A stretch of DNA of 31,356 nucleotides from Candidatus Micrarchaeota archaeon (GTDB taxonomy: Archaea; Micrarchaeota; Micrarchaeia; Anstonellales; Anstonellaceae). Positions 2,480 to 26,727 of this stretch are shown one piece after another. The DNA is taken from positions 1-31,356 of the forward strand of contig DUFS01000064.1 in the NCBI GenBank assembly GCA_013331805.1, written 5' to 3'. The notes under the pieces were generated by a model, which saw only the letters and a program-made list of their open reading frames with translations, was not told the origin of the DNA and did not search any database. Numbering within the stretch: position 1 is the first letter of the stretch; the number at the start of each line of letters is the position of its first letter. The translations under genes were made by a program, and so were the position numbers.

Positions 2480-4054
2480 ATGCCAAAAGCCGAAGTTGCC
2501 GGCGAAGGAAAGCTCGCCCCCAAGGACTCTGTCTGGAAGTACAAGCAGTATGTCTGCAAAGCCAAGTGCTTTGACATCACCGCAGGCGGCAAGATAATCG
2601 TGCTCAACGAGACAGAGGCGCACGAGAACGACCTTTACACTTCGCATCGGGTCATCCTTCGGTCGCAAAAAGCCCAGACGGTTGCAATAATCGACGTTTC
2701 AAGCGACCTGGTGGGCAGGGGCGAAGTGGTCCTTTTTTCCGAAGTTGCATCCGAGCTTGGCGCAATGGACGGCAATGAAATAGAGATAATGCACATGCAG
2801 CGGCCGGCTTCGATCGAGTTCATAAAGAAAAAGATGGACGGAAGGACGCTTGCCAAGCGCGAGATCGACACCGTCATGCGCGAGCTCATGGAAAACCGGC
2901 TTTCCGAAGCCGAGCTCGCCTCTTTCATCACCTCCATATACATACGCGGCATGAGCGAGGACGAAATAGTTGGGCTGACCGAAAGCGTGGTGGGCACAGG
3001 GCAGACGCTCCAGCTCGGCAGGCGCCCGGTATGCGACAAGCACTGCATAGGCGGGGTTGCCGGAAACCGGACCACCATGGTGCTGGTTCCCATTATAGCA
3101 GCTGCAGGGCTTTACATCCCGAAAACCTCGAGCCGTTCCATCACTTCTGCTGCAGGGACCGCTGACACAATGGAAGTGCTGGCGAACGTTTCATTGGAGA
3201 TCGACGAAATGCGCTCGATTGTGCAGAAAAGCCACGGCTGCATAGTCTGGGGAGGGGCGCTCAAGCTCGCATCCGCGGACGACAAGCTCATAAAGATAAG
3301 AAATCCGCTTTCGCTTGACCCCAAGGGCGTTCTTCTTGCCTCAATTCTTGCGAAAAAGAAAAGCGTGGGCGCTGACAATGTCATAATAGACATCCCGATA
3401 GGAAGGGGCGCGAAAATCGCAGACCAGAAGGAGGCAAATGAGCTTGCGCACGATTTCATTTCAATCGGAAAGCGCCTGGACATGAAAATAGAGGTGCTGG
3501 TGACCGACGGCTCTGAGCCGGTTGGCAGGGGGATCGGGCCCGCACTCGAGTGCCGCGACGTGCTGTCCGTGCTGTCTTTCGAGGGGCCGCCCGACCTGTT
3601 TGACAAGTCCTGCCAGCTGGCAGGGGCGCTGATCGAGCTTTCCGGAAAGGCGAAAAAGGGGTCCGGTTACGCAGTTGCACAAAGGCTGGTAACCTCTGGC
3701 AAGGCATTGGCGAAATTCCAGGAGATAGTCGAGCTTCAGGGCGGGCAAAAAAACGCAAACGTGGACGACATCCCGGTCGCCTCCTACAAGCACACGGTCT
3801 ATGCAAAGGAGAACGGCAGGATCTTCCACATAGACAACAAGATGATCTCCAAAGTCGCCCGCGCGGCAGGCGCGCCGAACGACAAGGCTGCCGGGCTGCT
3901 GCTGCTTTGCGAGCGGGGCGACAAGGTGAACAAGGGAGACCCGCTGTTCGAAATGCACTCCGACTCCGAGGCAAAGCTGGACTTTGCCATCAAGGCGCTT
4001 GAGGGCTGGGAGCCTGTGGAGCTTCGCAGGGTGGTGCTAAGCTCGATCGACTAG
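2480..4054 (+). CDS. deoA: AMP phosphorylase (thymidine phosphorylase family)
   Basis: DKHCIGGVAGNRTT and PKTSSRSITSAAGTADTMEVLA motifs, with the archaeal N-terminal extra domain; 524 aa. Confidence 0.93.
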   Translation: MPKAEVAGEGKLAPKDSVWKYKQYVCKAKCFDITAGGKIIVLNETEAHENDLYTSHRVILRSQKAQTVAIIDVSSDLVGRGEVVLFSEVASELGAMDGNEIEIMHMQRPASIEFIKKKMDGRTLAKREIDTVMRELMENRLSEAELASFITSIYIRGMSEDEIVGLTESVVGTGQTLQLGRRPVCDKHCIGGVAGNRTTMVLVPIIAAAGLYIPKTSSRSITSAAGTADTMEVLANVSLEIDEMRSIVQKSHGCIVWGGALKLASADDKLIKIRNPLSLDPKGVLLASILAKKKSVGADNVIIDIPIGRGAKIADQKEANELAHDFISIGKRLDMKIEVLVTDGSEPVGRGIGPALECRDVLSVLSFEGPPDLFDKSCQLAGALIELSGKAKKGSGYAVAQRLVTSGKALAKFQEIVELQGGQKNANVDDIPVASYKHTVYAKENGRIFHIDNKMISKVARAAGAPNDKAAGLLLLCERGDKVNKGDPLFEMHSDSEAKLDFAIKALEGWEPVELRRVVLSSID

Positions 4055-12643: not shown

Positions 12644-13519
12644 TCACCGTTCGAAACTTTTTCCAGTCAGCTTCTCGTAAGCCTCAACGTATTTTTCCGA
12701 TGTTTTCACAATCACTTCCTGCGGCAGATTGGGCGCAGGGGGTTTTTTGTCCCAGCCCGTTGACTCCAGGTAATCCCGCACGAACTGCTTGTCGTATGAA
12801 GGCTGATTCTGCCCTTCTTTGTACAAGTCAGAAGGCCAGTAGCGCGAGGAGTCCGGAGTGAGCACTTCGTCAATCAGGATAATTTTGCCGTTGTAAAGCC
12901 CGAACTCGAATTTCGTGTCTGCCAGGATTATCCCCCTTGTGCGGGCATAGTCTGCCGCAGTGGAATAGATTTTCAGGGAAAGGGATTTTACTTCGTCATA
13001 GGTTGCGTCCCCGACAATTCTCCTCCCTTCCTCGTCGTTCACGTTTATGTCATGCCCCACGTCCGCTTTTGTGGAGGGCGTGAAAATCGGGGAGGGCAGC
13101 TTGCTTGAATTTTTCAGGCCAGATGGCAATTTGACGCCGCACACAGTTCCGCTTGAATTATACTCCTTAAGTCCCGAGCCTGCCAGGTAGCCGCGGACAA
13201 CGCACTCGAGCTTGATGGGAGCGGCCCGCTTCACTATCATGCTCCTTCCTTTCAGGTAGGAAGGCAGGCCGGATGGCATTTCCGTTGAAATTAGGTGGTT
13301 TTCCACCACGCCTTTCAGCTTCTCGAACCAGAATAAGCTAAGCCCGGACAGTATCTTTCCTTTGTAGGGTATGCCTTCGCTGAAAACAACGTCAAATGCT
13401 GACAGGCGGTCGGACGCCACCATGAGCAAGTTGCCGCCATCAAGTTCGTAGGTGTCCCTGACCTTTCCGCGCGAAAAAAGCTTGAGCGGAAGTTCTGTCT
13501 TAGTGATGACTTCTTCCAT
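12644..13519 (-). CDS. purC: SAICAR synthetase PurC (long form)
   Basis: GKVRD, SDRLSAFD, ECVVRGYL, ADTKFEFG, DEVLTPDSSRYW, DKQFVRDYL. Confidence 0.96.
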   Translation of the reverse strand: MEEVITKTELPLKLFSRGKVRDTYELDGGNLLMVASDRLSAFDVVFSEGIPYKGKILSGLSLFWFEKLKGVVENHLISTEMPSGLPSYLKGRSMIVKRAAPIKLECVVRGYLAGSGLKEYNSSGTVCGVKLPSGLKNSSKLPSPIFTPSTKADVGHDINVNDEEGRRIVGDATYDEVKSLSLKIYSTAADYARTRGIILADTKFEFGLYNGKIILIDEVLTPDSSRYWPSDLYKEGQNQPSYDKQFVRDYLESTGWDKKPPAPNLPQEVIVKTSEKYVEAYEKLTGKSFER

Positions 13520-22720: not shown

Positions 22721-23191
22721 ATGGCAACGACACAGAAAAAGCCGCATTCAGAATTACTAATTTATCATCCAGGCATGGTGACGAAGAGCTTTTCGAAAAT
22801 GCTCCATGGGCGCTCCTTTCTCAACTATGACCCGAAGGCAAGTGAAATATTCGTAACAGTCAAAGCACAGGAAAAAAAGGACCCGCGCTCGCTTACCAGC
22901 CAGGAACTCTTTTCCTACTTGGTGAAGGGAATGGATGAAAACAAAGATGCCCTGCATCCATTGTTCAGCGTGGCTGCGTCGATTGAATTCCTGGCAAGGA
23001 GCCGGAATGGGAACAGCGCAGAGATTGCCGACCTGCTTAAAAATAACGAGCTGGATATGCGCACATTCCTCGATAAACACGTGAAGCCGAAAATCAAGTC
23101 AATAGAAGACCATATCTCCATGATGTCAAAGGATTCTATAAATATCGGCAAGGGGGGGAAAATGCGCATTAGGGGCGTGTTCGGGGGCTAA
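22721..23191 (+). CDS. Hypothetical protein (156 aa)
   Basis: AGGTGA SD and TTTATAAA TATA box upstream; no family recognised. Confidence 0.7.
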   Translation: MATTQKKPHSELLIYHPGMVTKSFSKMLHGRSFLNYDPKASEIFVTVKAQEKKDPRSLTSQELFSYLVKGMDENKDALHPLFSVAASIEFLARSRNGNSAEIADLLKNNELDMRTFLDKHVKPKIKSIEDHISMMSKDSINIGKGGKMRIRGVFGG

Positions 23192-24330
23192 GCTTCTTTC
23201 CTGATTTTCTTTTCCCAGCGCTCGAGCCTGCCCTTGAAGCGCTCGATTATGTCGAAAATGCGCCCCGAGGTTTTCCCGTCGCCGTAGGGGTTTTTTGTCC
23301 CCCTCATCCTTTTTGCCGCAGCCTGATTGCCAAGAATCCCTTTCACTTCCTTAACGATATTCTCCTTTTCGCAGCCCACGCACCTGTTTGCCCCTGCCTC
23401 CACTGATTCGGGCCTGTCGGTCACATAGCGCAGGGTGAGGCAGGGTATGTGGAGCGCTGCGCACTCCTCCTGCATGCCCCCTGAGTCAGTGAGAACCAGG
23501 TCGGACTCCAGCATAAGGCAAAGCGCGTCTGTATATTTGGGAAGGCACTTCTCCCAGATTATGTGCGGGGCATTCTTGAGCTTGTCAGCAAACCCATATT
23601 TTTCAGCCGCAAGTTGTGTGGAAGGAAGCACTGAACAGAAGAAATTCACCTCTTTCATATCAAGAAGCGATCCGAATATTCCCGTCATCCTCTTTTCAGA
23701 AAGCATATTCTCCTTCCTGTGGCAGGACCAGAACACAAAAGGATGCCTGATTTTGAAGCGTTCGGTAATGCGGCTCTTCTTCTTCGCGAGTACAGCGTGT
23801 TCCAGGGCGGCATCAACAACGCTGTTGCCGACAACGAATATCCTCTCTTCCGGCGCATGCTCGGACAGCAGGTCCTTGCGGTTCTTTTCCGTTGCCGCAA
23901 AGAAAAGCGCGGAACAGGCATCAGAAGTTTTTGTGCATATCTGCTCTGGGAATGGCTCCCAGGAATAGGTCCTCAAGCCAGCCTCAACGTGCCCCACAGG
24001 CACCAGTGAGAGCGCGGCAGCCTGGGAAAAGAACATCGCAGTGAATGTGTCCCCGTGCGTAAGCACAATGTCCGGCTTTTCCTTTTTGCATATTTTTTCG
24101 AATTCCACAAGTATCTTTGCCCCGATTTCCGGCGAGGATCCCCTGGCTTCTATGTCATAGTCCGGCCTCGGGATCTCCAAATCGTCGAACAGGTCCAGGT
24201 ACAGATTGTCGTCATAGTGCTGCCCGCTCCAGACAATGACGTTCTTGTGCCCCCTGCGGATTCCTTCCTTGATCAAAGGCGCCATCTTTATGGCGCAGGC
24301 GCGGCTCCCGAATGCATGTATTATTTTCAT
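23188..24330 (-). CDS. wecB: UDP-N-acetylglucosamine 2-epimerase (non-hydrolysing)
   Basis: IKMAP, SGQHY, HGDT, HVEAGLRT, PFPE, HRKEN, TDSGGMQEE, NPYGDG; family N-terminus begins at MKIIHAFG (24330). Confidence 0.92.
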   Translation of the reverse strand: MKIIHAFGSRACAIKMAPLIKEGIRRGHKNVIVWSGQHYDDNLYLDLFDDLEIPRPDYDIEARGSSPEIGAKILVEFEKICKKEKPDIVLTHGDTFTAMFFSQAAALSLVPVGHVEAGLRTYSWEPFPEQICTKTSDACSALFFAATEKNRKDLLSEHAPEERIFVVGNSVVDAALEHAVLAKKKSRITERFKIRHPFVFWSCHRKENMLSEKRMTGIFGSLLDMKEVNFFCSVLPSTQLAAEKYGFADKLKNAPHIIWEKCLPKYTDALCLMLESDLVLTDSGGMQEECAALHIPCLTLRYVTDRPESVEAGANRCVGCEKENIVKEVKGILGNQAAAKRMRGTKNPYGDGKTSGRIFDIIERFKGRLERWEKKIRKEA

Positions 24331-24358
24331 AATGCCCCTCGCAAGGAGACCTCTGGCT

Positions 24359-24526
24359 TCAGCCAGAGGAGGAATTGCGACCCTTCTCCTGCTCTTGAAT
24401 ATATCTCCGTATCGTCTCTTCTGAAACATGTCCTGCGGTTCCCACATAATAACTTGGAGACCATAGCTTGCCTTTCCTGAGAACTGTTTTCAGAAGTGGA
24501 TTTTGCCCAAATAGGCTTATAAGCAT
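24359..24526 (-). pseudogene. tnpA: C-terminal remnant of IS200-type Y1 transposase TnpA (55-codon ORF)
   Basis: Hand translation: MLISLFGQNPLLKTVLRKGKLWSPSYYVGTAGHVSEETIRRYIQEQEKGRNSSSG; LWSPSYY and YIxxQ present, HUH half missing. Confidence 0.88.
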
Positions 24527-24545
24527 TCTCCTTCCTAATAGGGTT

Positions 24546-25658
24546 ATGATGAAAACGATACAGACTGTTGTTGAGGAACTGCCAGAGCAGAGGGCTATCT
24601 TTGATGAAAACCTTTTGCTTATGGCTGATGCCCAAAACTTTGTCGTTTCCTCCTGCTATGACCATGAAGAAACCAACACCTTCAGGATGCACCATTTCAA
24701 CTATCCCATTCTCAGGGAACGCTTTGGCCTTCCCTCCCAGCTTGCGGTTGTTGCCAACAAGTATGCCTGCTCTTCCGTGAAGGGAGCCATCAGGCGAAAA
24801 GCTCCAAGACCAAATTTTTCTGGAAGAGCCGTCCATTATGATTCCCGCAGCAGCACAATAGACCTCGTTAAGAAATCCGCAAGCCTTCTGACAAAGGAAG
24901 GGAGGCTCAAGGTGAAGCTCAACGTCCCTTTGTATTTTCAGAAGTTCTCCGATTGGAAGGTCAAGGAAAGCAACCTCGTGAAATGCAGGGACAACAAGCT
25001 CAGGCTGATGATTATGATTGAGAAGCCGGCCATCAAATCCAACGGGAGTGGAAAAGTTATCGGTGTTGACAGGGGAATAACCAATCTGATTGCCACCTCT
25101 GATGGTTGGCTCTATGAAGGCCGTGATGTTTTTTCCGTCAAGAAGAGATACGTTGGGCTCAGGGCAAGGCTGCAAGCCAAAGGCACTCGTTCTGCCAAGA
25201 GACATCTTTCCAGGATGCGCGGCAGGGAGAAACGTTTTATGGCTGATGTCAACCATTGCATAAGCAGAACTTTGATAGACAGCGCAGGACTGAACGGAGC
25301 TTTGATTCTGGAAAACCTCAAGGGAATCAGAACCGCAAGGCACAGGCATCAGCAGAACTGGCTCTTCTCCAACTGGGCTTTTTACCAGCTTGAAACCTTT
25401 CTCAAATACAAAGGGGAAGAGCGAGGTGTCGCTGTTGAGTTTGTTCCAGCAAGGAATACCTCCAAAGCTTGCTCCGCATGTGGAAGCATCAAGAAGGGGC
25501 AGAGGCAAGGCTCTGTGTTCAGGTGCAAAACCTGCAACGTGGTTCTCCACGCCGACTTGAACGCTGCCAAAAACATCCTGCATAAATACCAATCCTCAAG
25601 GGCTGCTGTCAACCAGCCTATTGCTCTCCAAGCGGATGGAGCAAGCCACCGTCTTTAG
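24546..25658 (+). CDS. tnpB: RNA-guided endonuclease TnpB (about 370 aa)
   Basis: RuvC-I IGVDRG, RuvC-II ILENL, Zn finger CSACG...CKTC, RuvC-III HADLNAAKNI; TTATAA about 25 nt upstream. Confidence 0.95.
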   Translation: MMKTIQTVVEELPEQRAIFDENLLLMADAQNFVVSSCYDHEETNTFRMHHFNYPILRERFGLPSQLAVVANKYACSSVKGAIRRKAPRPNFSGRAVHYDSRSSTIDLVKKSASLLTKEGRLKVKLNVPLYFQKFSDWKVKESNLVKCRDNKLRLMIMIEKPAIKSNGSGKVIGVDRGITNLIATSDGWLYEGRDVFSVKKRYVGLRARLQAKGTRSAKRHLSRMRGREKRFMADVNHCISRTLIDSAGLNGALILENLKGIRTARHRHQQNWLFSNWAFYQLETFLKYKGEERGVAVEFVPARNTSKACSACGSIKKGQRQGSVFRCKTCNVVLHADLNAAKNILHKYQSSRAAVNQPIALQADGASHRL

Positions 25659-26138
25659 ACGGTGGTAGTTGACGATTTCCTTCGCATCGGATTCGGCATG
25701 GTAAAGCAGGCTCACGATGTCTATCGCGTCTTTTTCGCCCTTCGGCGTTTCGGCCCGGTCTTTCCAAGCCCCGAGCTTGAGCATCAGGAGCTGGGGCACG
25801 GTTGCCACCCGGATTCCATCTACTACATTGTGGTTTTCCAATATTTTTTCCACAGGGTAGGACAAGCGCGAGAATTTCGGGACATAAATGTCAACGTCAA
25901 ACTCCCCTGTCCTTATTTCGTATTTCGCGAGCCTTTCGTTTTTCAAGAGCCCGAATTCCTTTTCGAGCGCCAAAAGGGAACCATAATCAGCCACGATGTC
26001 AATGTCCCTTGATTTTTGGGCCCTTGTGTGGAGGTAGACTGCCCAGCCGCCTATAAGGACAAACGAGTGCCCAGATGACAGCTCCAGCAAAAAATGGTAG
26101 CTTTTTTCAGTGACCGTCTCATTCCAATACTGTTTCAT
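25596..26138 (-). CDS. AbiEii-like nucleotidyltransferase; last 25 codons are read from the IS right end
   Basis: VLIGGWAV...SRDIDIV and KGEKDAID motifs; 155 non-IS codons (26138-25674), then reads into the IS. Confidence 0.8.
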   Translation of the reverse strand: MKQYWNETVTEKSYHFLLELSSGHSFVLIGGWAVYLHTRAQKSRDIDIVADYGSLLALEKEFGLLKNERLAKYEIRTGEFDVDIYVPKFSRLSYPVEKILENHNVVDGIRVATVPQLLMLKLGAWKDRAETPKGEKDAIDIVSLLYHAESDAKEIVNYHRLKTVACSIRLESNRLVDSSP

Positions 26139-26727
26139 ATAGCCCCATCCTCTTTCCAAGTGCATCCTTATATCTGGCGGACTGCCAGTCGTTCAGGTTC
26201 CATAAGTCAACATAGACCTGCGGGTCAGGGCATATGCCTTTGTCGGCATAGCCTGCAAGAAAGGGGTCTTTGCCAAGCACCAGCACTCTGGCATTTCCCT
26301 TTTCATTCCTGAATCTCCCCCCAGCTTCTGCAGCCTCTTTCTGGTCAGCATAAACAATCACTGTGGAATAGTCTGCCACGGCCTCATTGTGCCTCAGCCT
26401 GTATGCAGTGCAGCCTCCCCAGACTATCCCCGAGGGCATCGCCTTTTCAGCTTCGGAGACGCTTGCTGCCCAGCCGCTCCAGACAACGTCTTTCGCAAGC
26501 TTCCGCTGCGTTCCCCAGAATGCCAGGAGCTTTCCAAGGTCTGAGAGCCTGCATCCCCTGGAAAGGGGGGAAACAATCCCGTTTTGCACAAGCGGGAAAA
26601 TGGCATTGTGCACGGTGGACAGTGATATCCCGAATTTCCTGGACAGCCCAAGCTGGGTGAACCGCGCACCACGTTCCTTCAGCGCGTTGCAGGCAAGTTC
26701 CCTGTAAATCCATTCCTTTTTCTTCAT
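26119..26727 (-). CDS. Winged-HTH protein, AbiEi-like antitoxin/transcriptional regulator
   Basis: FTQLGLSRKFGISLSTVHNA HTH; C-terminal PQVYVDLW; overlaps the NTase start. Confidence 0.75.
   Translation of the reverse strand: MKKKEWIYRELACNALKERGARFTQLGLSRKFGISLSTVHNAIFPLVQNGIVSPLSRGCRLSDLGKLLAFWGTQRKLAKDVVWSGWAASVSEAEKAMPSGIVWGGCTAYRLRHNEAVADYSTVIVYADQKEAAEAGGRFRNEKGNARVLVLGKDPFLAGYADKGICPDPQVYVDLWNLNDWQSARYKDALGKRMGLYETVLE

Follow-up and report, generated by a model that had tools for sequence, protein, structure and literature searches.

The mechanisms of IS200/IS605 elements and of TnpB are well understood; how elements so abundant persist in tiny, gene-dense genomes is less clear. In IS608, base 1 of a guide tetranucleotide pairs with base 2 of the cleavage site, base 2 with base 1 and base 4 with base 4; in IS605 proper, tnpA is divergent from tnpB. 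Passages of the published work on IS608 give AAAG and GAAT as the guides and TTAC and TCAA as the sites (He et al., 2011; Morero et al., 2018), and the pairing scheme is consistent with the four IS608 tetranucleotides in Morero et al. (2018). In Geobacillus stearothermophilus, the nuclease motif of ISGst5 (IscB) and ISGst2 (TnpB) is the transposase target, TTCAT being the native motif of ISGst5; passages of the preprint do not give the relation of either element to start codons (Meers et al., preprint). PATEs, named in the Haloquadratum walsbyi genome paper, are MITE-like derivatives of IS200/IS605 elements.

The window, that is the whole stretch of 31 356 nucleotides that was analysed, carries an IS605-type single-strand transposon of Micrarchaeota (DPANN archaea). 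As in IS608 and ISDra2, there is a subterminal hairpin at both ends with a four-base guide directly 5' of each; the left site is in flanking DNA, with 19 bases between it and the foot of the hairpin, and the right site is internal, a few bases 3' of the hairpin. There are no terminal inverted repeats. The guides pair with the cleavage sites, the IS608 pattern fitting both GAGA with TCAT and CAAG with TGAC. The features are as follows.

23188..24330, minus strand: wecB-like UDP-N-acetylglucosamine 2-epimerase gene, 380 aa, starting at the ATG that abuts the left end
24327..24330, plus strand: left cleavage/target tetranucleotide TCAT, in the flank and outside the element (TTCAT at 24326-24330)
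24331-25673: IS605-type element, 1343 bases, ending at the left hairpin side at 24331 and at TGAC at 25673
24331..24349, plus strand: left-end linker, 19 bases, terminating in the guide GAGA
24346-24349, plus strand: left guide GAGA, at +16..+19 from the left end
24350..24369, plus strand: left subterminal hairpin CCTCTGGC/ttca/GCCAGAGG
24359..24526, minus strand: tnpA (Y1 transposase) remnant, PF01797 profile positions 84-121 of 121
24517..24522, no strand assigned: TATA-like palindromic box TTATAA, 23 bases 5' of the tnpB ATG
24546..25658, plus strand: tnpB, 370 aa, intact, its stop codon TAG inside the right hairpin
25600..25645, plus strand: conserved stems GGGCTG/CAGCC and TTGCTCTCC/GGATGGAGCAA, within the 3' end of tnpB
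25642-25645, plus strand: right guide CAAG, at the end of the conserved-stem segment
25646..25665, plus strand: right subterminal hairpin CCACCGTC/ttta/GACGGTGG, followed by TAGT
25670..25673, plus strand: right cleavage site TGAC, the final bases of the element
25674..25690, plus strand: right flank, where the guide part of the omega RNA would be expected, as in TnpB systems already characterised (Meers et al., preprint)
25674..26165, minus strand: nucleotidyltransferase-like gene, with weak AbiEii and DUF6036 matches

The coordinates given in a first-pass annotation of this DNA for TCAT, both guides, TGAC and the element ends were all correct on re-reading the sequence. Similarity among copies stops exactly after TCAT and after TGAC, both in two further copies from the same genome (the C19 copies) and in related copies elsewhere, and the boundaries therefore rest on more than the pairing rule; the right boundary proposed in that annotation is thus fixed at 25673. 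The stems of the left hairpin vary among relatives, with compensatory changes.

Left flanks were tabulated for the other copies, as the first-pass annotation had suggested, and TCAT was present in all 38 distinct insertions with a readable left end (duplicates removed); each end was located for this count by TCAT together with that end's own first bases. A second hairpin search, run without assuming TCAT, covered 44 loci and found the left hairpin in 33. TCAT occupied -23..-20, counted from the foot of the hairpin, in 29 of these; in two of the remaining four the script had picked the wrong hairpin, and in two the linker was 18 or 21 bases and TCAT was present on inspection. All counts exclude loci with a cut left end (L025, L037, L042, L045, L048-L050, L063 and L064), and the left ends of L041 and L047 were not found. 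TCAA replaced TCAT in L043, a 32%-identical relative. The base at -5 was T in 27/38 insertions, whereas start-like ATGA sites in the genome would give 45% (binomial P about 0.001), so TTCAT is preferred and not required; the (T)TCAT target that had been proposed thus holds as an invariant TCAT with a favoured preceding T.

Across relatives the pairing rule fitted GA(G/A)A or GATA with TCAT, and CAAG with TGAC, as had been claimed for GAGA/TCAT and CAAG/TGAC in the window. One exception was L023, with a non-matching left guide, TAAA. The rule also fitted C56, a different element of the same genome, with guide GACG and end TCAC. The chance of three paired bases matching is ∼1/64 per end with the positions taken as fixed.

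The TnpB of the window matched the NCBIfam guided_TnpB model NF040570 with 171.8 bits (cut-off 100) and the Pfam profiles PF07282 (76.5 bits, cut-off 26.3) and PF01385 (36.5 bits, cut-off 30.5), and it was matched by solved Cas12f and TnpB chains with E down to 1.5e-22. All three RuvC residues were in place, as the first reading had it: D175 and E256 were invariant across all 21 aligned relatives and D337 across 20 of them. The zinc-finger cysteines C309, C312, C327 and C330 (CxxC...CxxC) were kept in 20-21 of the 21, and the only relative missing conserved TnpB residues was a truncated copy. At the 3' end of tnpB and the right end, 29 base pairs were predicted, 11 of them with changes on both sides; the conserved stems at 25600..25645 are probably the scaffold of the guide (omega) RNA. 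By analogy, the flank from 25674 would be expected to serve as the TnpB guide, and the flanks predict (T)TCAT as the motif (TAM) of this TnpB. A search of the stretch against Rfam gave no significant family; the sole match, HEARO, was on the opposite strand with an E-value of 0.5 and was treated as noise.

Of the window tnpA only the last ∼40 domain residues remain, the 5' part having been deleted; the stop codon of this remnant sits in the left-hairpin loop on the minus strand. Complete tnpA was found in L036, a 95%-identical relative (NF033573 positions 2-126 of 126, PF01797 positions 2-121 of 121). In the full-length relative tnpA reads outward, toward the left end, and TTATAA is some 24 bases away from each of the two start codons, that of tnpA and that of tnpB. 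The window retains this box, a candidate archaeal promoter for both directions. The 91.5%-complete assembly has no intact tnpA of the family. As most of tnpA is gone, though tnpB is intact, the window copy would need an external transposase and could be mobile only with one supplied from elsewhere.

The complement of TCAT is ATGA, and in the window the ATG at 24330-24328 is the start codon of wecB. The left guide GA(G/A)A specifies TCAT, and insertion 3' of TCAT is insertion immediately 5' of ATGA on the other strand. It had been proposed at first reading that such an element would often land in front of start codons and in stop/start overlaps, and both proposals agreed with the counts. The complementary ATG opened an ORF of at least 100 codons in 25/34 close-clade insertions, 39-58 codons in 3/34 and <30 codons in 6/34, against a background of 23.8% of 9093 ATGA sites of the genome opening at least 100 codons (binomial P about 1e-9). 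Of the six insertions lacking a downstream ORF, two of the three with both flanks known sit at stop codons. With the element removed in silico, 17/23 two-flank loci combined an ORF of at least 100 codons with an in-frame stop no more than 23 codons upstream. An ATGA gene boundary was found at 22/23 two-flank loci, comprising 13 with a start only, seven stop/start overlaps (gatD|gatE, topoisomerase|NUDIX and HAD|MetAP among them) and two with a stop only; one locus had neither. Read backwards, the right end closes the upstream gene after six codons where TGA was its stop, at 23/27 loci. Surviving copies thus sit overwhelmingly where the ATG is the start codon of a host gene, often with the TGA as the stop codon of the preceding gene.

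These ATG codons appear native to the host genes. In Pfam alignments, residue 1-4 of many flanking proteins aligned to profile position 1-3, identifying true N-termini; proteins aligned in this way included RmlD, two epimerases, MetAP, NUDIX, GAPDH, GatE and a GT2 glycosyltransferase, and TBP and Kae1/TsaD were also among those placed at true N-termini. An empty site was available at the TBP locus: the sequence upstream of TBP in this genome aligned with the right flank of a congener's copy up to the base before ATG. The uninterrupted locus has ATGAAG at the homologous position, so that the ATG belongs to the host gene, and there was no target duplication.

A gene loses its own ribosome-binding site when the element inserts before its ATG, and the left end appears, from its sequence, to provide a substitute. 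Read as its reverse complement, the left end holds fragments of the Shine-Dalgarno consensus GGAGGTGATC at 2-8 bases ahead of the host ATG; the host 16S rRNA ends ...GATCACCTCCA, and among the long ORFs of this genome SD-like 5-mers are most frequent 4-8 bases upstream of the first ATG. In the window, GAGGGG (minus strand, 24340-24335) lies 4 bases before the wecB ATG and is proposed as an outward Shine-Dalgarno sequence for wecB. At least five bases of GGAGGTGATC at a spacing of 2-8 were found in 13/28 distinct left ends (shuffle mean 1.2, maximum 7 in 2000) and at least four in 23/28 (shuffle mean 4.8), a test that overstates independence, as the left ends are related to one another. The motif was weak, with 3-4 consensus bases, in 15/28, including the GAGGGG of the window. 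The variants (GAGG, GAGGTG, AGGTGAT, GGTGATC, GGAGGTG and GGAGGTGAT) are different sub-strings of the one consensus, and a motif of this kind, with the same spacing, is found in the native upstream sequences that insertion has moved to the right flank. TCAT and GAGA are shared by a Methanothrix-like clade that lacks the motif, and the pairing of cleavage site and guide seen here therefore does not itself require it. The conserved CCTCGCAAGGA block could serve the transposase instead of ribosomes. A tiny stem was considered as the cause of the conservation of CCTCGCAAGGAG; it has at most three pairs and was unconvincing.

The window copy itself has been rearranged, since its right flank is a truncated gene and not the native wecB leader. 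The first-pass annotation had the element landing without cutting the downstream gene; the insertion does adjoin the wecB ATG, but the right-flank gene is truncated near codon 164 of some 205, its frame continuing 25 codons into the element. Without the element this ORF and wecB are in frame, and a native fusion was considered and rejected: homologues of the right-flank gene run about 40 residues further and the wecB N-terminus is usual (PF02350, E 3.2e-82, profile positions 10-347 covered by residues 29-363). The right flank more likely arose by a deletion or by recombination of one copy with another. In four DNA runs the interior of the element is single copy, and no contig joined 24330 to 25674 among the contigs of these runs, which drop rare variants. 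The ends of the element occur at 3-5 times the flank depth, as mini copies: a form of ∼117 bases, joining 24380 to 25607, is present in contigs at about three times the flank depth. The two C19 copies are probably this form, and sit at the start codons of a carbonic anhydrase and a membrane protein with GAGGTG 4 bases before the ATG. A reading of them as 45-base single-hairpin elements was discarded; one hairpin and guide cannot specify both cleavage sites, the 'NN' is one of 82 two-base assembly gaps and the contigs show the ∼117-base form.

We consider it likely that this is an IS605-type element with ends built for ATGA boundaries, which docks at start codons and supplies translation signals to the gene it displaces. 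Read outward, the terminal ∼15 bases of the left end would form a Shine-Dalgarno sequence that complements the 3' tail of the host 16S rRNA and is spaced normally from the ATG. Transcription of tnpA would, in full-length copies, run outward through the left end from the TATA box common to tnpB, and the displaced host gene would be transcribed and translated from element-supplied signals; insertions before essential genes would persist because the element provides these. For the short tnpB-only copies, no outward promoter could be named beyond the nearly palindromic TATA box. After excision, TnpB with the right-end RNA would cut the emptied site (TCAT and right flank), and the copy would be restored by recombination following the cut, as shown for other TnpB systems. 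More tentatively, and with the balance somewhat against it, the whole family may be adapted to ATGA junctions as a swap cassette for gene starts, combining a left-end promoter (the TATA box of tnpA) and Shine-Dalgarno sequence, right-end closure of the upstream gene and host dependence. If so, the expression of TBP, gatE, kae1, GAPDH, MetAP and other essential host genes would rely on the element; the host would tolerate its excision only where this was precise, the element would therefore be hard to lose, and each docked copy would have a guide RNA antisense to the native leader that it displaced.

The same distribution might arise if any TCAT were targeted and copies within genes were purged, the G-rich motif being a transposition signal or chance and the displaced genes being read through from old promoters. 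The target has only four bases, and a genome that is 91% coding must impose strong selection; the CCTCGCAAGGA block is conserved as DNA, the motif is weak in the 15 left ends described above and a distant clade (L040 and L068) is without it, yet L040 is at a start codon. This account is nevertheless unlikely. The frequency of start codons among close-clade insertions also exceeds a 'tolerated sites' null of 0.39, built on crude gene calls (P about 4e-5). Insertion costs essential genes, among them TBP, GatE, Kae1, GAPDH and MetAP, their native Shine-Dalgarno sequences, and something must therefore replace these; and the motif lies at the spacing usual for the genome and varies as sliding sub-strings of the anti-16S consensus, not as one fixed word. 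It is scarcely credible that TCAT belongs to the element, so that any neighbour would receive from it an ATG and a ribosome-binding site: TCAT is invariant beside every copy, which would be expected of a terminal sequence, but this reading is contradicted by the ATGAAG of the uninterrupted TBP locus, and the flanking proteins begin at profile position 1-3 with that methionine. The left cleavage site of IS608 likewise lies outside the IS, according to a passage of He et al. (2011).

Whether the window copy is a dead relic, with tnpA deleted, the right flank rearranged and tnpB awaiting decay, is a separate matter that bears on present mobility only and is compatible with start-codon docking. 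The short tnpA remnant, the lack of an intact family tnpA in the assembly, the truncated right neighbour, the single-copy interior and the absence of contigs skipping the whole element all point this way. Set against these, tnpB is full length with all catalytic residues, both element ends are intact and abundant as mini copies, and the Shine-Dalgarno sequence of the element is the only one that wecB has. The relic interpretation is possible, although we lean against it.

The element differs from IS608 in that TCAT, at which it inserts, reads ATGA on the complementary strand, that its tnpA and tnpB diverge and are not co-directional, and that its right site ends 8 bases from the hairpin rather than 10. 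Its left-end linker has an outward SD-like motif, for which no counterpart in IS608 was found in the literature searched; nor did that literature, which lay outside subscription journals and supplementary files, describe start-codon docking or a left-end ribosome-binding site. In the passages on ISGst5 the partner of TTCAT is IscB, as against TnpB here, and the hosts of ISGst5 and ISGst2 are bacteria. The ∼117-base mini form resembles the PATEs and other MITE-like derivatives in being short, non-coding and composed of ends only; the mini copies differ in sitting also at start codons with GAGGTG 4 bases before the ATG. If the proposal is correct, the predicted compact TnpB with the motif (T)TCAT would be naturally aimed at translation start sites and its guides placed beside gene leaders, a position of possible relevance to the evolution of RNA-guided regulators from TnpB. 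This lineage would also offer one concrete answer to how such elements persist, its target complementing the commonest start-codon context and its terminus resembling a replacement ribosome-binding site, so that insertion before a gene would be nearly harmless. The IStrons (CdISt1-type, IS605 with a group I intron), of the same IS family, likewise limit the harm to the interrupted gene. They leave the RNA by splicing, whereas the element described here is without an intron and seems to supply a new ribosome-binding site, which would make it the counterpart to the splicing solution.

The window is part of contig C28, in an assembly of 1.19 Mb in 83 contigs that is 91.5% complete. Every coordinate given to the tnpB-carrying element in the first-pass annotation proved correct when the window sequence was re-read, and the parts are as follows.

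Features of the element in the window
24326-24330, TTCAT, end of the left flank
24331-25673, whole element, 1343 bases
Left linker, 19 bases, closing with the guide GAGA at 24346-24349
24350-24369, left hairpin, CCTCTGGC-ttca-GCCAGAGG
Minus strand, tnpA remnant, matching Pfam Y1_Tnp positions 84-121 of 121 only
24517-24522, TTATAA box
24546 to 25658, tnpB, 370 aa
25642-25645, right guide CAAG
25646-25665, right hairpin, TAGT next
25670-25673, right end TGAC

Similarity to this element ends exactly after TCAT on the left and after TGAC on the right in two further copies on contig C19 of the same genome, and it is likewise lost at these points in a congener copy (79% identity), in a copy with an internal deletion from a different family within the order (95-96% identity), and in 41 metagenome and 10 genome loci. 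The left flanks of the other copies were tabulated, as had been proposed; the boundaries were the same, and the predicted TCAT target was found in 38 of 38 distinct insertions after duplicates were removed. A T precedes TCAT in 27/38 insertions, whereas start-like ATGA sites would lead one to expect 45% (P ~0.001). When hairpins were sought with no prior assumption of TCAT, 33 loci gave a hairpin, and in 29 of these TCAT lay at -23 to -20 from its foot; among the remaining four, two hairpins had been wrongly picked and two had a linker of 18 or 21 bases, these last two with TCAT. A relative of 32% identity carries TCAA in place of TCAT.

In IS608, a 4-nt guide 5' of each hairpin pairs with the cleavage tetranucleotide (guide base 1 with site base 2, 2 with 1 and 4 with 4). 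Published descriptions of IS608 give guides AAAG and GAAT and sites TTAC and TCAA; the left site belongs to the flank and is 19 bases away from the hairpin, and the right site belongs to the element and is 10 bases away (He et al. 2011; Morero et al. 2018). These four tetranucleotides are consistent with the pairing scheme. The same rule, on which the annotation had relied, fits GA(G/A)A with TCAT and CAAG with TGAC in this element group, the exception being one locus (L023) with the left guide TAAA. A different element of the same genome, on contig C56, has an IS200-type tnpA (~2900-3250, minus strand) interrupted by a 27-N gap, and its right end comprises the guide GACG, the hairpin CCACGGGC/GCCCGTGG and the end TAGTTCAC. 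The pair GACG/TCAC obeys the scheme, and the same rule therefore holds with a different site.

TnpB scores above the NCBIfam guided_TnpB cut-off (171.8 bits vs 100), also matches Pfam PF07282 and PF01385, and is matched by solved TnpB and Cas12f chains. All three RuvC residues are present as claimed (D175, E256 and D337), and, like the four cysteines of the zinc finger, they are unchanged in 20-21 of the 21 relatives aligned, the sole miss being a truncated copy. The last 180 bases of 18 relatives share a fold of 29 pairs, 11 of them changed on both sides, and these changes are located in the right hairpin and the stem immediately 5' of it. This structure fits a predicted omega-RNA (TnpB guide RNA) scaffold overlapping the 3' end of tnpB. 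Six more TnpB-like genes, many for a 1.19-Mb genome, are found on C16, C40, C47, C50, C65 and C66; they are 25-29% identical to the window TnpB and belong to another subfamily (N-termini MKMYRFRLYPSK), and the right ends read on C40, C47 and C65 all finish in ATGTCAC.

Copy depth was assessed by mapping contigs of four DNA runs onto the window. The element interior was at flank depth in all four, and the ends (24337-24380 and 25607-25674) were at 3-5 times flank depth. Contigs from two runs joined 24380 to 25607, and loose contig ends matched the flanks of a C19 copy. In the assembly, the C19 copies (L002, C19:14446-14487; L003, C19:6683-6721) consist of a left end of 19 bases, NN and a right end of 24 bases, and 82 such two-base N runs occur. 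Taken together, the end depth, the joins and the loose ends indicate that the C19 copies are probably mini elements of ~117 bases; one directly precedes the start codon of a beta-carbonic anhydrase gene, the other that of a membrane-protein gene. No intact tnpA of the window element's family was found in this assembly (91.5% complete). To the right of the window element, a nucleotidyltransferase-like ORF (25674-26165, minus strand; weak AbiEii and DUF6036 matches) is cut at the element's end at about codon 164 of ~205, homologues in two congeners being ~40 residues longer; with the element removed it is in frame with wecB, the epimerase-like gene on the left. The cut ORF suggests a deletion beside the right end, or recombination between two copies. 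Elsewhere in the genome, a small-subunit rRNA match at C10:1759-4064 (minus strand) spans 2306 bases against a 1478-position model, and the gene is therefore probably interrupted by an intron or another large insert; C10:197-1384 gives a further, partial match.

The element docks at start codons and gene boundaries. For this, ORF length was measured from the ATG that lies opposite TCAT on the other strand, in a close clade of 34 distinct insertions (protein identity of 57% or more; L046, a cut copy of greater divergence, was also included). The ORF had at least 100 codons in 25 of the 34 (four of the 25 run off the contig), 39-58 codons in three and fewer than 30 in six. Among 9093 ATGA sites of the genome, 23.8% open at least 100 codons, and only 5.5% do so with an in-frame stop within 25 codons upstream, a stricter test passed by 17 of 23 two-flank loci after removal of the element in silico. 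The binomial tail for start enrichment was ~1e-9 against random sites; insertion merely at tolerated sites, represented by a crude null of start-like and intergenic sites only (value 0.39), gave ~4e-5. The two-flank loci comprised 13 with a start codon only, seven in which the TGA of ATGA closes a long upstream ORF (including gatD|gatE, topoisomerase I|NUDIX and HAD hydrolase|MetAP), two with an upstream stop and no downstream gene, and one with neither. In all, 22/23 loci thus lie at an ATGA-defined gene boundary, as anticipated. Read backwards in the overlap frame, the right end gives a stop after six codons in 23/27 loci, an effect that conservation of the hairpin loop may produce incidentally.

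The ATGs beside the element are real N-termini by Pfam alignment: RmlD residues 1-281 fall on profile positions 1-282, and the first aligned residue and position are 1 on 1 for GAPDH and NUDIX, 2 on 2 for GatE and 3 on 1 for MetAP, with further support from two epimerases, a GT2 glycosyltransferase and DUF6390. Other docked genes encode TBP, Kae1/TsaD, carbonic anhydrase, an M20 peptidase and a SIS protein. At a true empty site, the region upstream of TBP on C54 aligns with the right flank of a congener copy as far as the last base ahead of the ATG, and this ATG is native to the host gene. The uninterrupted TBP (C54 ~13230-13300) and gatE (C53 ~10225) of this genome open with ATGAAG and hence present a free TTCAT target on the opposite strand. 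Three TATA-like boxes (TTTAAATA twice, TTTAAAAA) are found in the leader of TBP.

Insertion directly 5' of an ATG separates the gene from its own Shine-Dalgarno (SD) sequence, and the only candidate ribosome-binding site of wecB is the SD-like motif of the element. The 16S rRNA of this genome ends in ...GATCACCTCCA, and in long ORFs SD-like 5-mers are at their maximum 4-8 bases ahead of the first ATG. Read as its reverse complement, the left end contains sub-strings of GGAGGTGATC 2-8 bases ahead of the host ATG: GAGGGG in the window, GAGGTG in the C19 copies and in L012 and L036, elsewhere AGGTGAT, GGTGAT, GGTGATC, GAGGTGA and GGAGGTG, and GGAGGTGAT in a 36%-identical relative. Among the 28 different left ends, 13 carry five or more consensus bases (mean over shuffles 1.2, highest value 7 in 2000 shuffles) and 23 carry four or more (shuffle mean 4.8), counts that are not independent because the left ends are related. 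The variants slide along the anti-16S consensus with no single fixed word, which is more persuasive than the counts, and displaced native leaders carry the same motifs at the same spacing. A Methanothrix-like clade has the same target and guide without the motif; pairing of guide and cleavage site thus does not itself require it. In one locus (L062:1003-1030) a tandem repeat of the 9-mer TTAATCACC places two SD-like motifs ahead of GAPDH, and in another (L030:1220-1240) the first nine bases of the left end and of the right flank are identical (TTGATCACC); the only account of both would be an SD plus spacer in each.

A complete tnpA is present in L036 (137 aa, HUH motif and catalytic tyrosine), divergent from tnpB and oriented towards the left end, with its stop codon within the loop of the hairpin. 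One palindromic TTATAA is found ~24 bases from both starts; in the window copy the tnpA lacks its 5' part but this box is kept, and a TATA-like or A+T-rich box precedes tnpB by 24-30 bases in 22/22 loci examined. From this arrangement we infer that the host gene would be the second cistron of an element-derived transcript, that of tnpA; in short copies it might alternatively lie on a transcript from the two-way box. On balance, judged from sequence, a role of the left end in translation and transcription seems somewhat the more probable reading. The copy L036/L067 (also G046:C78) comes from a different family of the same order and has a TnpB 95-96% identical, a likeness that hints at recent horizontal transfer; its tnpA is intact and its tnpB lacks residues 105-256, decay opposite to that of the window copy. 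In L061 (790-870) additional sequence lies within the left hairpin, and in L019 (1240-1460) the left-end promoter region is separated from tnpB by a further ~180 bases that contain hairpins of their own; these may be nested small elements.

The first-pass observation is confirmed and its interpretation supported. The machinery of the element is typical of the IS200/IS605 family; by its ends and site choice it is a new variant. IStrons, of the same family, avoid harm by splicing. Neither start-codon docking nor a ribosome-binding site in the left end was found described in the openly accessible articles on IS200/IS605 elements that were searched. ISGst5, an element with IscB as its nuclease, likewise has TTCAT as its native motif (Meers et al. 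preprint), whereas the window element carries TnpB.
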